From Narcine bancroftii (Eukaryota), in assembly GCF_036971445.1 (NCBI RefSeq), contig NC_091472.1:204538001-204602000 (forward strand): a stretch of DNA of 64,000 nt. Direction: 5' to 3'. A model generated the notes under the pieces. The model was not told the origin of the DNA. It ran no database searches and worked only from the letters and a program-made list of their open reading frames with translations. Positions 24,301 to 36,925 of the stretch are shown here, piece by piece. The first letter of the stretch is position 1. Every line of letters begins with the position of its first letter. The translations under genes and the position numbers were made by a program.

Positions 24301-26237
24301 GGCTGCTGGCTACTAACAGGATCTGGTGCTCACTCGGGGATGTGAGGAGAGCAAGGCGGTTGACTAACCCCTGGTCAATAAAACTTTCAGTGCTTCCACT
24401 ACCTATTAAGCAATTTACCCTCACATCATTAATTTTGATGCACACAGTGGATCAGATAAATTGTGTGGACTCGCCTGATTCATGCATAGGGAAGCAAATC
24501 TGGCGTGTCCTTCGAGTCCTTCCATCCGATAGTACTCAGTGTCATATTCATCTCCTGAAGACTGTGTCCTCTGCTCTGTAGCATTTGTCCAAGATGGCTG
24601 GCTGCACATGGCATTCTTCTTCTGTTTGTCTGTGGAGAAAGAAGAGCTTTCCCGCCTCTCATTAGCATGCAAATGGGCCTTGGGGCTTCTGCAGACTTTT
24701 GCATAATGCCCACGTTTTCCACAGTTGGAACAGATATTTTCTTTGGCAGGGCAGAGGGCTCTGAGGTGCTTTCTTTGTCCACAGAAAAAGCACTTGGGAC
24801 CCTCAAGGTGCTGCTGCTGCTGTGAATTCCTGTGAGGCAGCATATTTTTCTTTTCGTGGGGCAAGAGAGTCCAGCAGTGTGACGCTTGTCCCAGCCCCAG
24901 GGTCCTGTGAGTACTCCTCCAATTCTTTCCTGGTGCTTTCTAAAGCTTCTGCAATAATCTCTGTCTCATCTAGCCCCACCATTCCTTTCTCCAGCAATCG
25001 ATGACTCATCTCAGTGGACAGTATGCCAGCAACAATTCTGTCCCTAATAAGGTCCTCCGCATACTCCTGAGTTGATACTGCTTTAAAGTTGCAGCTTCTC
25101 GCCAGGTCTTTCAGAGAGTATAAGTCTCTGGCAGACTCCCCTACTTGTTGTGACTTGGTCATGAGTCTGTACCGGGAGTTCGCTATCCCCCTTACTGTAA
25201 TGCCTCTGTAAAATGCTCATTGCCTCTTGGTAGGTCCTGGCATCCTGTATAAAGGAGTAAGGGTGGTCTCCCAGCTGCACTAACAGCAACATTAATAGCT
25301 CTTTATCCAATGCCTCAGCACCCTCCACATAATTCAGAAAGCATCTTTGCCAGTGGCCGAAGTGCATGCCGGCTCCGTGATTTCTGGGGCCGAGCTCCAG
25401 CCTGTCTGGTCACAGCACATGGCTAAGCCACAGTCTCTGGTCCCTTAGGTGTAGCAAGGGTAGACCCTGGGGTACTGGGAGCTACTGGTAGAGCCTCTGT
25501 GGGGTTTGTGTCTGCTGGAGGAGTTACCTGGGTGTTTGGGGTTGTTGGCTGAGTCTCTGGCTTTGGGACACTTGCAGCAGCCTTAGGGAGAATCCCAGTG
25601 GTAGTGTCAGGATTCCGTGGTACTGGAGAAACTGCTGCTGGGGGAATGACAGTAGCAGTGTCTGCTTTCTCTGGCTCTGGAGTGGTTTGGAATTCTGCAC
25701 ATACATGGCGATCAGGAGCATGACTTGTGGAGATCCTTCCACCTGCGCTTGTAGTGGCTCCTTTCTGATTGGACTGGGGTTTAGGGTCAGCGGTGCCTGT
25801 ACCGGCGAACCCATGGGCAGGCAGGGCTCTTGGCCGTTTCCTTACCTGCCCTATAGTACTTCTGTGGTCTTCCCCATATTCCACCATGATTCCAGTACAG
25901 CAGTCCCTCGCCATCTCTGTCCTCGGATGCACGTGTGTGCTAGTCGTCCCCGGATTCCATTCCTCAGGAAGAGTCTCCAGGTTGTCGGGAATGCGCGTTG
26001 GAGCAGAAGCAGCTTTCATCCTAGTAGCTATCATATTAGTTTATTAAATTGTACTGACAATAACCACACCAGCCATGCGAGTATAAGACAGGTTTAAAAA
26101 ACTAATATGTACACTAAGAGGTCTTGTCTCTCTGCAAGACCAAACTGGAAGGCTAGACTGTGGCTCTGGACTGCTTTATATACAAGGACACCGGGGTGAC
26201 CCCTGGTGACCTAATGGTGTAATGACATATCACCACA
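21362..26237 (-). mobile_element. Full-length, degenerate Ty3/Gypsy LTR retrotransposon
   Basis: 188-bp LTRs 21362-21549 and 26050-26237 (TG..CA); 5-bp TSD AAACC; PPT next to the left LTR; gag (LxPDRLEL..FGHWQRCF, two CCHC knuckles), PR (LIGSGSTESFI), RT (FSTIDLKAAYHQ, YLDN), RH (DASD), IN (PFERLSLDFKG, IHTDRG); many stops and frameshifts. Confidence 0.95.
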
Positions 26238-26749
26238 AAACCATTCTGAAAACAACGGCCCTCCGTTTAGCAGAGCACTCGCAAGATCGACTTCCGCTGA
26301 ACATCCTTCCTCAAATGTGGCCACACTCGCCAAAGCGGAGCGCAGCGCCACAGAAATCCCCCCTGTGCGTATGACTCTGATCGGCGTCTTACAGGACAGG
26401 AAGCCGAACTCAGGCGGAGTTCATTCTTTTAAAATCATTTTTATGGAGGTTTACCCGAAAAAAAGCAGTAAATCAATTGCAATGAGATTTACAACTCATT
26501 ACATATGGTACAGTAGCAATGCGACTCAATTCTAAATCCAATAAATGGTAACACTTACAATATTGTAAGAGATAAGTCAGAACAAAAATGAAACGAAATC
26601 AAGCCCACGGCGATCACGGTTACAATTCATGTTGAGAGTCGTGTAAATCTGAACAAGCGACCTCAGGGGTTCCAAACAAGCCCGCCCAGTGACATTCATC
26701 ACCGCACCTGATCAGTCCGATGATGGAAGTGAGCTAGAAATGGGCCCCA

Positions 26750-28700: not shown

Positions 28701-29078
28701 CAGTGGTTCCCAATTATTTTCTTCCCGCTCACATCCCACTGTAAGTAATCCCTGTGCCATCAGTGCTCTGTGATGAGTAAGGGATTGCTTAAGGTGCGAT
28801 GCGGATGGGAAGGGAAGGTTGAGAATCACTGCTCTAAACCCAATTTTTACTGAAATATTTTGTTTGAAAAAAATTGTCAATTGACCCATTTCCTTTGGAG
28901 GTATGAAACCGTGTACATAACGAGCCAATTAAGGACGATTAAAACAGGGGTTTTCAAACTTTTCCTTCCTACCCACATCCCACCTTAAGCAATCCCTTAC
29001 TAATCACAAAACACCGATGGCAGAGGGAATACTTAAGCTGGAATGTGAGCTGGGTGGGGGGCAGTTTGAAAACCACTG
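28701..29078. mobile_element. Palindromic hAT MITE family copy, just 3' of the IgL polyA signal
   Basis: CAGTGGTTCCCAA / TTTGAAAACCACTG termini; shared modules. Confidence 0.85.
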
Positions 29079-29201
29079 GTGTAGAATGTCACAATAATTA
29101 CAAAATTGAACAACTATATCCGATTTGGGAAATCGCCATTGATTGAAACAGAGGCATCTGCCAGAAAAGACGGGCAAATTCTGAGATAATGCAAAATGCA
29201 G

Positions 29202-29207
29202 TTTATT
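29202..29207 (-). terminator. Putative IgL polyadenylation signal AATAAA
   Basis: TTTATT on + strand ~210 nt past the CL stop codon. Confidence 0.65.
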
Positions 29208-29413
29208 ACTTGGTGTAATTGATCAAATCGCATCTAACCTTCGATGCATCTTGGAAGTCGTAGAACGCTAGTGAGCGGAATCAAGTAAGCAAAATACACA
29301 ATCTTGCTGATTTTATGGCTTTCGTTACAAAAATCACCAAACTGAAATTGCAAAATTTAAAAAAAAACAGTCACATGCTGACAAATATAACAGATCAGTA
29401 AAGGATCGTTGAC

Positions 29414-29736
29414 TCAGATACAGCTCGATTTCGCGATGTTTGTCTTCATCGGATTTGCCAGGGTCTCATGTTTAACCACACAAGAGTAAAGTTCGTGCGA
29501 GTTCCAGTCTGAGGCTGACAGAGTCAGATAACTGCTCGCACTGAACGTGTTGTCTGTCTCCTGTTGGACCGGGCTGGTCGCAGCGCCGTTCCTTACCTCA
29601 CTGCCGTCCACGGTCCACTCAATGTCCAAGGCGCCCGGAATAAACCCGCTCACCAAACACACTAGGGTGGCCGTGTCCTTCGTTGCGATCTCGACGGCTG
29701 AAGGTCGGAGGACGGACACCACGGGGGGCTGTGACA
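29414..29736 (-). CDS. Immunoglobulin light chain constant exon (type II/lambda)
   Basis: Acceptor TTTTTCAG at 29737; PPVVSVLRPS..EI..KDTATLVCLVSGF.PG...IEWTVDG...SSYLTL...W.SHELYSCVVKHE...SSCI*; both C1-set cysteines, Trp and the C-terminal interchain Cys present; phase 1. Confidence 0.97.
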
Positions 29737-30004
29737 CTGAAAAATAGAAACAAGTGTGTTTGAACATCCATTCGATCTTAGTCGCTTTGAAATTCGGAGA
29801 GGGACAAATTGTAGTTGTCGGCCCTTTGTCTCCTCGAGCCGATTTCGGCTTTTAGGAAGATCCTGATTGATCTTCTATTTCAGGAGAACTTTCCCGCACT
29901 GAGACAATATTCTTCAATTCCTTGAATACTCCAAATCTCTCTCGAATGAGAATCCAGAGACAATTCCAAAATTTCTCTCTACCCCAGTGGGCCTGCTTAT
30001 ATTT

Positions 30005-30212
30005 TGAAAATATTTTGCTTGAGAAAAATGATAATTGGCCCATTTCGTGTGTATAACGAGTCAATTAGGGACGATTAAAACAGTGGCTCTCAAACTTTTT
30101 ATTTCCACACACATCCCACCTTAAGCAATCTCATACTAATCACAGAGCACCGATAGCAGAGGGATTACTTACAGTGGGATGTGAGTGGAAAGGGAAAAGG
30201 TTGAGAACCACT
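30005..30212. mobile_element. Palindromic hAT MITE partial copy in the IgL J-C intron
   Basis: One spacer plus one hairpin module of the family. Confidence 0.8.
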
Positions 30213-34010: not shown

Positions 34011-34712
34011 TATCTTCAGCTGTGCTTTTAAAAAAACGTATTTGAATACATGCCACCCATTCCCCTTTCTTTCTCCGTGCCTGGACCCGTCACGATTTTG
34101 CACCAGACACCAATCGCGCCCGCCCCAAGTGATATCGCCCAAACTCGGCATCCTTGGAATGAGAACGGATGGAATACAACGGGGAGGAGGGAGTTGCAGA
34201 TTCATTATACATAGGAGGGGCATTAATCTTCATTGAAATTCATCATCACACGGCGATATTTCTGCTCTAGAATCTTCAAATGCCCTGAGGAATTTCATTA
34301 ATACATTTGATTCATTCTTAAACGCACACACAGATGTGCACCAATCAAAATATAATTAATATTCAGAGCCATACTGAATAGAATTGGGTCATATGTTTGT
34401 TCGGACTGTGGGGACGGGCGGAAGAGTTGGTGCTCAGTCCCCAGCGAATTTGATGATCCAATGCACCTGCCATTCAGTGCAGTGGTTACAGCGTGTTGCA
34501 ATTAATTCATTGTCGCCACCCACCCATTCTCCAAAGAACAATGTTAAAGGTTGGGCATTTTGATAAGGTGCTTTAATGACGACAATCTTTAACTTATTTC
34601 AAATTATTTTCAATCGTGTGCGTTAAATATCTCCACTGATATTAAAAAATAAAGGCCCGCCGCGGAGTTCAGGCTGAGCTTTCCGATCTTTAATCGCTAC
34701 TTGAATTCCTCT

Positions 34713-36925
34713 CTGCCTCGCCGGCGAGTGGTGTCGCAGACCAGATCTGCCTCGCCGGGGAGTGGTGTCATTGACCAGATCTGCCTCGTTGGGGAGTGAG
34801 GTCACTGACCAGATCTGCCTCGCCGGGGAGTGGTGTCACTGACCAGATCTGCCTCGTTGGGGAGTGAGGTCATTGACCAGATCTGCCTCGTTGGGGAGTG
34901 AGGTCACTGACCAGATCTGCCTCGCCGGGGAGTGGTGTCACTGACCAGATCTGCCTCGTTGGGGAGTGAGGTCATTGACCAGATCTGCCTCGTTGGGGAG
35001 TGAGGTCACTGACCAGATCTGCCTCGCCGGGGAGTGGTGTCACTGACCAGATCTGCCTCGGCGGGGAGTGGTGTCACTGACCAGATCTGCCTCGCCGGGG
35101 AGTGGTGTCACTGACCAGATCTGCCTCGCCGGGGAGTGGTGTCACTGACCAGATCTGCCTCGCCGGGGAGTGGTGTCACTGACCAGATCTGCCTCGCCGG
35201 GGAGTGGTGTCACTGACCAGATCTGCCTCGCCGGGGAGTGGTGTCACTGACCAGATCTGCCTCGCCGGGGAGTGGTGTCACTGACCAGATCTGCCTCGCC
35301 AGCGAGTGGTGTCACCGACCAGATCTGCCTCGCCGGGGAGTGGTGTCACTGACCAGATCTGCCTCGTTGGGGAGTGAGGTCATTGACCAGATCTGCCTCA
35401 TTGGGCAGTGAGGTCACTGACCAGATCTGCCTCGCCGGGGAGTGGTGTCACTGACCAGATCTGCCTCGCCGGGGAGTGGTGTCACTGACCAGATCTGCCT
35501 CGTCGGGGAGTGGTGTCACTGACCAGATCTGCCTCGCCGGGGAGTGGTGTCACTGACCAGATCTGCCTCGCCGGGGAGTGGTGTCACTGACCAGATCTGC
35601 CTCGCCGGGGAGTGGTGTCACTGACCAGATCTGCCTCGCCGGGGAGTGGTGTCACTGACCAGATCTGCCTCGTTGGGGAGTGAGGTCATTGACCAGATCT
35701 GCCTCGTTGGGGAGTGAGGTCACTGACCAGATCTGCCTCGCCGGGGAGTGGTGTCACTGACCAGATCTGCCTCGTTGGGGAGTGAGGTCATTGACCAGAT
35801 CTGCCTCGTTGGGGAGTGAGGTCACTGACCAGATCTGCCTCGCCGGGGAGTGGTGTCACTGACCAGATCTGCCTCGGCGGGGAGTGGTGTCACTGACCAG
35901 ATCTGCCTCGCCGGGGAGTGGTGTCACTGACCAGATCTGCCTCGCCGGGGAGTGGTGTCACTGACCAGATCTGCCTCGCCGGGGAGTGGTGTCACTGACC
36001 AGATCTGCCTCGCCGGGGAGTGGTGTCACTGACCAGATCTGCCTCGCCGGGGAGTGGTGTCACTGACCAGATCTGCCTCGCCGGGGAGTGGTGTCACTGA
36101 CCAGATCTGCCTCGCCAGCGAGTGGTGTCACCGACCAGATCTGCCTCGCCGGGGAGTGGTGTCACTGACCAGATCTGCCTCGTTGGGGAGTGAGGTCATT
36201 GACCAGATCTGCCTCATTGGGCAGTGAGGTCACTGACCAGATCTGCCTCGCCGGGGAGTGGTGTCACTGACCAGATCTGCCTCGCCGGGGAGTGGTGTCA
36301 CTGACCAGATCTGCCTCGTCGGGGAGTGGTGTCACTGACCAGATCTGCCTCGCCGGGGAGTGGTGTCACTGACCAGATCTGCCTCGCCGGGGAGTGGTGT
36401 CACTGACCAGATCTGCCTCGCCGGGGAGTGGTGTCACTGACCAGATCTGCCTCGCCGGGGAGTGGTGTCACTGACCAGATCTGCCTCGCCAGCGAGTGGT
36501 GTCACCGACCAGATCTGCATCGCCGGGGAGTGGTGTCACCGACCAGATCTGCCTCTCCGGGGAGTGGTTCACTGACCAGATCTGCCTCGCCAGCGAGTGG
36601 TGTCACCGACCAGATCTGCCTCGTTGGGGAGTGAGGTCACTGACCAGATCTGCCTCGCCGGGGAGTGGTGTCACTGACCAGATCTGCCTCGTTGGGGAGT
36701 GAGGTCACTGACCAGATCTGCCTCGTTGGGGAGTGGGGTCACTGACCAGATCTGCCTCGTTGGGGAGTGGGGTCACTGACCAGATCTGCCTCGCCGGGGA
36801 GTGGTGTCACTGACCAGATCTGCCTCGTTGGGGAGTGAGGTCACTGACCAGATCTGCCTCGTTGGGGAGTGGGGTCACTGACCAGATCTGCCTCATTGGG
36901 GAGTGGGGTCACTGACCAGATCTTC
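34713..36925. repeat. 34-bp minisatellite, ~65 copies, consensus CTGACCAGATCTGCCTCGCCGGGGAGTGGTGTCA
   Basis: Period measured between CTGACCAG at 35043 and 35077; BglII site in each unit; several monomer variants. Confidence 0.98.

Follow-up and report, generated by a model that had tools for sequence, protein, structure and literature searches.

To our knowledge, self-priming of reverse transcription has been shown experimentally only for the fission-yeast element Tf1, and elsewhere it has been guessed from complementarity. In the accessible parts of the respective reports, Tf1 primes with the first 11 bases of its RNA, which is cut between bases 11 and 12 by RNase H (PMC7175516), about half of Tf1 cDNAs retain a copy of the primer-binding site (PBS; PMC11042837), and the Tf1/sushi elements, which are chromoviruses, have a leader built of three duplexes (10.1101/2022.12.06.519325). 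For the plant lineages Tcn1 (Gypsy) and TAR/Houba/Osr-1 (Copia), self-priming is predicted, in the available sections of PMC6317226, from an LTR complement of at least 10 nt just after the 5′ LTR. The Mag lineage (A, B and C clades), Cigr-1 and MolGy are characterized in excerpts of two further sources by short LTRs, a CCHC Gag, no chromodomain and a wide animal range, and these excerpts mention no self-priming (PMC3601003, PMC6238403).

The element analysed here shares with Tf1/Tf2 (Schizosaccharomyces pombe), Tj1 and the Tf1/sushi group, as partially available sources describe them, the Ty3/Gypsy order, a PBS that complements the element's own 5′ RNA and the absence of a tRNA. Unlike in Tf1, with its 11-nt primer at the RNA start, the paired block would lie ~37-43 nt after the start and ends in the poly(A) hexamer, the putative primer being 52-59 nt long; and unlike the chromodomain-bearing Tf1/sushi group, it has no chromodomain. 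The element works like Tf1 but lacks two features of membership, namely a primer made of the first ~11 nt and a chromodomain. The LTR complement adjoining the 5′ LTR is shared with Tcn1 and TAR/Houba/Osr-1, yet these belong to other lineages and hosts, are known from prediction only, and are described in the sections available without a poly(A) link or run-on products (PMC6317226). The short LTR, the CCHC Gag and the lack of a chromodomain are shared with Mag, Cigr-1 and MolGy, a likeness drawn by description and not by tree placement. In retroviruses, a 5′ poly(A) hairpin buries the hexamer in a stem, and over-copying of the tRNA at the second strand transfer leaves primer sequence beyond the PBS in deleted proviruses. 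A hexamer in a (predicted) 5′ stem and over-copied primer sequence are found here as well; however, retroviruses are primed by tRNA, whereas here the strand opposite the hexamer is the PBS, and it is R of the element itself that has been over-copied. Such an arrangement is not described in the portions available of PMC3601003, PMC6238403, PMC6934838, PMC12471100 and PMC8220671, and a literature search, with most subscription papers and Repbase outside its range, found no paper on self-priming or palindromic products of this clade.

Structure of the element

A 4.9-kb LTR element occupies positions 26237-21362, on the minus strand, of the window (the whole 64,000-nt stretch of DNA analysed). The host genome is 3.3 Gb, and the nearest named proteins are those of sharks and rays (64-68% identity). 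The features of the element are as follows:

26238..26242, minus strand: left copy of a 5-bp target-site duplication (TSD), GGTTT
26050..26237, minus strand: 5′ LTR, 188 bp, TG...CA ends, identical to the 3′ LTR at 172 of 188 positions
26032..26049, minus strand: one-base spacer A plus self-complementary PBS (16-17 nt, no TGG)
21803..26019, minus strand: gag-pol, decayed, with many stops and frameshifts and no chromodomain
21550..21562, minus strand: polypurine tract, just before the 3′ LTR
21362..21549, minus strand: 3′ LTR, 188 bp
21357..21361, minus strand: right copy of the 5-bp TSD

The TG...CA LTR ends, the short TSD, the polypurine tract and the domain order (zinc knuckle, protease, RT, RNase H and integrase, that is, gag-PR-RT-RH-IN) are those of Ty3/Gypsy, and Ty3 is the nearest solved relative. 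The initial annotation had seen no chromodomain, and none was found in any of the five proteins checked at E values up to 1. To the initial annotation the Gag and RT motifs also looked Mag-like; the combination of CCHC Gag, short LTR and missing chromodomain agrees with the Mag lineage but is not diagnostic alone, so that a Mag affinity is at most possible. A 205-codon Pro/Thr-rich frame without a Pfam match (25423-26040, minus strand) precedes the Gag core, and relatives, judged by coordinates only, have no leader region as long as this. Elsewhere in the window are a 34-bp tandem array (34678-34983) and a pair of ~140-bp repeats with inverted copies (28701-30197), which are probably small transposons.

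A primer-binding site complementary to the LTR

On the minus strand, the 5′ LTR ends in ...GTACA and is followed by A (26049) and then by TTTAATAAACTAATATG (26048-26032), which complements 21421-21405 in the 3′ LTR without a mismatch (17/17). It matches the corresponding block of the 5′ LTR, 26109-26093, at 16/17 because TTTAAA stands there instead of ATTAAA. With no TGG after the LTR, the initial annotation was right in proposing that a 17-nt complement of the element's own LTR takes the place of a tRNA PBS; its placement of TATATAAA at ~21487-21494 was likewise borne out. Within the LTR, the relevant features are as follows:

26093..26109, minus strand: LTR block 129-145 in the 5′ LTR, putative 3′ end of the self-primer, hexamer with one substitution
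21405..21421, minus strand: LTR block 129-145 in the 3′ LTR, intact ATTAAA, predicted poly(A) signal
26175..26182, minus strand: TATA box, TATATAAA, LTR 56-63 (21494-21487 in the 3′ LTR)

Shuffling the LTR 2000 times never produced a complement as long as 14 nt. Other copies carry the complement as well: it was present in 30 of 30, with a perfect run of at least 16 nt in 24 and one mismatch in six, these 30 being the top of 41 matches ranked by likeness to a leader-containing query and thus a biased sample. Genome-wide, 421 exact matches to LTR end, PBS and leader were found, versus none for the reversed control. A local inverted duplication was rejected on these counts. The conserved duplex is 16 bp, since position 17 varies (G/C/T). 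Rfam returned no meaningful match at this site.

Covariation among relatives

Using the natural open frame of another copy as query, 1290 relatives were found among 7990 scored candidates. From metagenome loci and the young sister family in the same genome, 14 LTR/PBS sets were drawn, two pairs of which are close kin. Among 80 metagenome loci, those below 3.5 kb were set aside, and an LTR pair was missing from most of the rest; a TG-starting LTR was present in 18, of which 12 were scored and six omitted as near copies of L143 or L155, and for some of the loci LTR ends were set by eye. The 10 loci obtained from genome contigs all lacked a usable LTR pair, and no relatives were found among viral contigs. 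Several contigs of bacterial metagenome-assembled genomes (L338-L342) carry the clade's pol at 44-59% identity, likely as animal contamination.

Within a set, 12-16 of the 16 PBS positions pair with the LTR (mean 14.6), versus a mean of 10.6 and a maximum of 14 across sets, and the own LTR is strictly the best partner in 11 of the 14; the sets L153 and L155 differ by one compensatory pair. For TGG-type Gypsy copies of the same genome (n=8), the score against the LTR was only 8-10 of 16. Covariation between the PBS and the LTR, for which the initial annotation had suggested looking, was therefore found. The register is fixed: the LTR ends in ...CA and is followed by one purine and then by TTT (TGT in one set), which pairs with an LTR block ending TAAA, then GC or AC. 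The distance from this block to the LTR end is 34-65 nt. A canonical hexamer (AATAAA or ATTAAA) ends the block in eight of the 14 sets, and the other six pair without it; a TGG-type PBS occurs in none. In a quick tree, unrooted and without named references (L152, L189 and L183 were dropped as too short), the 13 self-complementary rows all lay together on the same side of a branch that had an SH-aLRT of 100. RT-RH identity between the self-complementary clade and the genome's TGG-type Gypsy families was 23-31%. Judged from these copies and sets, the self-complementary PBS is both family-wide and clade-wide.

Run-on insertions and the tRNA-primed control

In one copy (L035), the first such case, the PBS was seen to continue as the reverse complement of the LTR. 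A total of 154 such run-ons versus 421 normal 5′ ends were found for the window family, and 239 (111 + 128, for two LTR variants) versus 766 for a sister family, the reversed control being zero in both. The sister family (L221-L228) is young, as its LTR pairs are 99-100% identical, with long single open frames and at least 766 normal 5′ ends.

A TGG-type Gypsy family of the same genome, serving as control, had 88 non-standard continuations. At nine of nine distinct loci, chosen for showing a tRNA continuation, its run-ons follow the host tRNA-Ser(GCT) gene for 44-51 nt, to the anticodon loop. ARAGORN recognised the intact tRNA-Ser(GCT) gene, and Rfam missed the truncated tRNA run-ons. One tRNA-Ser run-on variant recurs often on contig C23 and on small contigs, probably through later duplication. 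Since the run-ons of this tRNA-primed family are tRNA, over-copying reveals the primer in this genome. For the self-complementary families, in contrast, the continuations were leader or LTR in 22 of 22 cases and, by eye, in 98 of the first 100 of 308, both patterns sampling only part of the possible continuations; no recurring foreign RNA was present among these 22 and 100.

The site was also compared with host tRNAs, as had been proposed at the outset: among 29 distinct ones, an incomplete set, the longest match to the PBS was 6-7 nt, versus 14 nt for the control family. With this best match and no TGG in 14 of 14 sets, a tRNA-primed identity was rejected. A related reading is that the hairpin merely masks the 5′ poly(A) signal, while a tRNA fragment or some other cellular RNA is the primer. 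Full pairing of the hexamer in the predicted 5′ fold would suit it, and half-tRNA primers do exist in Copia lineages, according to the sections available of PMC6317226. Yet a PBS has to adjoin the LTR, and here its letters vary in step with the LTR of each family, the host tRNAs match so poorly, the sampled run-ons are LTR and never a recurring foreign RNA, and six of 14 sets pair without a canonical hexamer; this reading is largely refuted and extremely improbable. The claim of tRNA-independent self-priming is supported by the covariation, by run-ons that reach back to the predicted start and by the tRNA-primed control, and the primer almost certainly derives from the element's own RNA. What is new here is that fossil errors of reverse transcription record the primer, with a tRNA-primed family as internal control; run-on insertions should allow the primer and the start site of any LTR family to be read from the genome alone.

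Palindromic insertions

For the window family, 96 of the 100 inserts listed were analysed: 77 reach LTR 1-4, and 47 have both ends whole, 42 of these full palindromes having a TSD at 4-5 of 5 positions. For the sister family, 76 of 98 analysed in a first set reach LTR 1-4 and 29 have both ends whole (23 with a TSD at 4-5 of 5), while in a second set of 30 sampled, seven were whole, three of them with an exact TSD. The palindromic inserts consist of LTR + A + reverse-complement LTR, with a length of ~334 bp in the window family and ~433 bp in the sister family, and are flanked by 5-bp TSDs. Such palindromes (L051-L140, L232-L337 and L385-L414) would be annotated as MITEs.

Indeed, with their TG...CA inverted ends and 5-bp TSD they resemble a MITE, and they might be an independent MITE-like family or later DNA-level rearrangements, uninformative on priming. 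The arms in the old window family are only slightly more alike within an insert (difference 0.072) than random pairs are (0.085). In the young sister family, however, the arms differ by 0.0125 within an insert versus 0.032 between inserts, with 15 right-arm haplotypes among 23; because arms match within inserts and haplotypes are so many, the palindromes are read as repeated by-products rather than one spreading MITE. They moreover arise in two families, from several LTR haplotypes and always in the same register, and related products carry internal pieces and diverse junctions, with TSDs in 7/8 and 3/3. Descent from one master MITE was rejected given the several LTR haplotypes, the arms matched within inserts and the two families involved, and a MITE-like or rearranged origin is very improbable. 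A class of MITE-looking palindromes would thus be explained as retrotransposon by-products. If this is true, about one run-on product has arisen per three normal 5′ ends, and long inverted repeats in a vertebrate genome would have a source that had escaped notice. Palindromes are known to make genomes unstable.

Products with a truncated left LTR were also found: in the young sister family, 45 of 48 join element sequence, 41 of them antisense, and a TSD is present in seven of the eight with both ends in view, while in the window family only nine of 32 could be assigned. An inverted-U5 class (L232, L238, L241, L254, L261, L313 and others) consists of U3-R up to the hexamer, U5 in backward orientation, internal sequence and a 3′ LTR, with a TSD in seven of eight.

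Run-on ends and the putative transcription start

The spacing of transcription starts downstream of a TATA box is an established rule, and together with the run-on ends it delimits the putative start and primer:

26148..26151, minus strand: putative transcription start, LTR 87-90, from TATA spacing and run-on ends at 87-91
26093..26151, minus strand: putative self-primer, cap to hexamer, ~59 nt, from run-on stops

If the primer is the RNA from cap to hexamer and is copied by plus-strand strong-stop DNA, run-ons that leave early should not enter U3. Of 20 distinct sister-family junctions at which the run-on rejoins the element, 19 lie at LTR 137-171 and one, an exception, at 103; ten of the 20 fall at 137-145 and none at 128-136 (windows picked after the first 15 junctions had been seen), and an Inr A is predicted at 141. 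In the first set, 14 of 15 distinct junctions were at 137-164 and one at 103, whereas a later separate sample of 30 gave five more, all of which fit, at 138-171 (out-of-sample p ~5e-4; uniform-null p ~3e-12 for the two samples together). Three of the 19 fitting junctions run past the predicted start to 137-138, which 3-nt microhomology accounts for in two and only 1 nt in one; for L301 no microhomology partner was found by script. Outside the 20 are four sister run-ons that join unidentified DNA (131 and 118) or the LTR end (80 and 14). In the window family, the junction intervals are 87-93 (three copies, one junction), 87-90 and 88-91; other run-ons end at 87 (one or two more), at 108 (one) and at 52 (one), the last being an exception to the start-site stop. 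The junction at 87-93 is not independent of structure, as it was made at a leader hexamer whose predicted partner is the very start of the RNA.

The block would thus lie 37-43 nt after the start, as indicated by TATA/Inr and run-on ends, in support of the initial placement ~40 nt inside the transcript. The element is also covered by contigs of four runs of one study, taken by guess as RNA, which cannot show starts or ends and were not used; in those of two runs, LTR position 90 is joined to the LTR end with one extra base (window 21460 to 21362), near the putative start.

The run-ons are proof of a template whose beginning is the start site, but not of its being the covalently attached primer. 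The primer could be the 14-17-nt block only, with cuts on both sides or a true start at the block, and run-ons to LTR 87 or 141 would then come from a plus-strand end that jumps onto the R of a second RNA and copies that RNA up to the cap. Such a primer is closer to the 11 nt of Tf1, any plus-sense R could pair with the plus-strand PBS end, and nine sister-family junctions (at 146-171) stop before reaching 145. However, the window family lacks a TATA-like element 30 nt upstream of the block, a second cut would be required, and the control family readily over-copies attached primers for ~50 nt in the same genome; the short primer is quite improbable. Because the run-ons copy the LTR back to the start and the control run-ons are tRNA, the primer is most likely a capped self fragment of ~52-59 nt. 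We assign a probability of roughly two in three to its being the element's own capped 5′ fragment of this length, cut in cis after the TAAA of the hexamer, with start and cut both putative. A long primer, from cap to hexamer, best resolves the puzzle of a block that is not at the start site, and the genome record points to a primer five times longer than that of Tf1 and tied to the poly(A) signal.

RNA folding and the poly(A) signal

Two further features are predicted to take part in the fold:

26120..26145, minus strand: predicted hairpin inside R, LTR 93-118, with a recurrent template switch at LTR 112
26013..26031, minus strand: leader with predicted additional pairing to LTR 119-128, overlapping the gag ATG (26019)

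The predicted cis fold of R with the PBS is at −47.4 and −32.2 kcal/mol, with an unpaired probability of the hexamer of at most 0.04. The leader pairing was folded on copy L003, from which the window copy has one change there; in most copies, the predicted pairing of the leader also takes in the first six RNA bases. Both families are predicted to form several flanking duplexes, arranged differently from those of the Tf1/sushi 'pretzel' leader. In four inserts (L078, L080, L081 and L123), the run-on reverses direction at the R hairpin (LTR 112), with tandem R-U5 repeats as the result.

The initial annotation had further suggested that the duplex hides the 5′ poly(A) signal. One part of this stands, as the hexamer is paired in the predicted 5′ fold; on the other side, it is also partly paired in the predicted 3′-end fold without the leader, and it is canonical in only eight of 14 sets. 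Masking of the 5′ poly(A) signal by the predicted R-PBS duplex is no more than plausible.

The fold also bears on whether priming is in cis. In trans, a separate short transcript of any LTR, from the cap to just past the hexamer, would bind the PBS of a genomic RNA that is itself uncut, and would be trimmed to where the duplex ends. This explains the covariation and the start-site stop equally well, makes the primer end coincide with a 3′-processing signal and offers longer homology for the first jump. Of the inverted-U5 junctions, 37/48 lie at LTR 182-202, around the predicted cut at 192/193; many reach up to 11 nt past the cut, as priming in trans would allow, yet they cluster there, and 192 was the commonest position in a second sample. 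The cis fold is moreover so strongly favoured in prediction that the PBS would already be occupied. Priming in trans is thus rather unlikely.

Proposed priming mechanism

For the capped fragment cut in cis, the following course is proposed. Transcription would begin ~31 nt after the TATA box, and R would pair with the PBS in cis, thereby also hiding the 5′ poly(A) signal. The cut after the hexamer, which would free a 3′-OH, would be made by a nuclease, presumably RNase H of the element if Tf1 is a guide. The strong-stop DNA would then be only ~44-49 nt long and would jump via the short stretch between the hexamer and the poly(A) site. Often the primer would be left attached, so that plus-strand strong-stop DNA copies it towards the cap. 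In Tf1, too, the primer is retained and copied into cDNA ends, as stated in the available parts of PMC7175516, PMC11042837 and 10.1101/2022.12.06.519325; here, the insertions point to it.

The over-long, self-complementary end may mis-jump into the element body at 0-7 nt of microhomology, or alternatively snap back on the LTR and be extended to the U3 end, which would give a palindrome with two U3 ends. Integrase would insert such palindromes with a 5-bp duplication.

More broadly, an animal-wide, non-chromoviral Gypsy clade may have evolved self-priming independently of Tf1, with a capped primer of 50-60 nt ending in the poly(A) hexamer. One duplex would both block premature 3′-end processing and set the primer cut, possibly with the host 3′-end machinery, at the price of a routine stream of palindromic LTR dimers. 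We consider this wider proposal an even bet. The origin of tRNA versus hairpin priming becomes testable in a second lineage.

Pairing of two snap-back strands would give a two-ended integrase substrate, with the U5 loop left as a bubble, and this fits palindrome centres with both loop orientations. Among L056/L057, L074 and L105, the U5 loop at the palindrome centre occurs in either orientation, which is what repair of such a bubble between two strands should produce.
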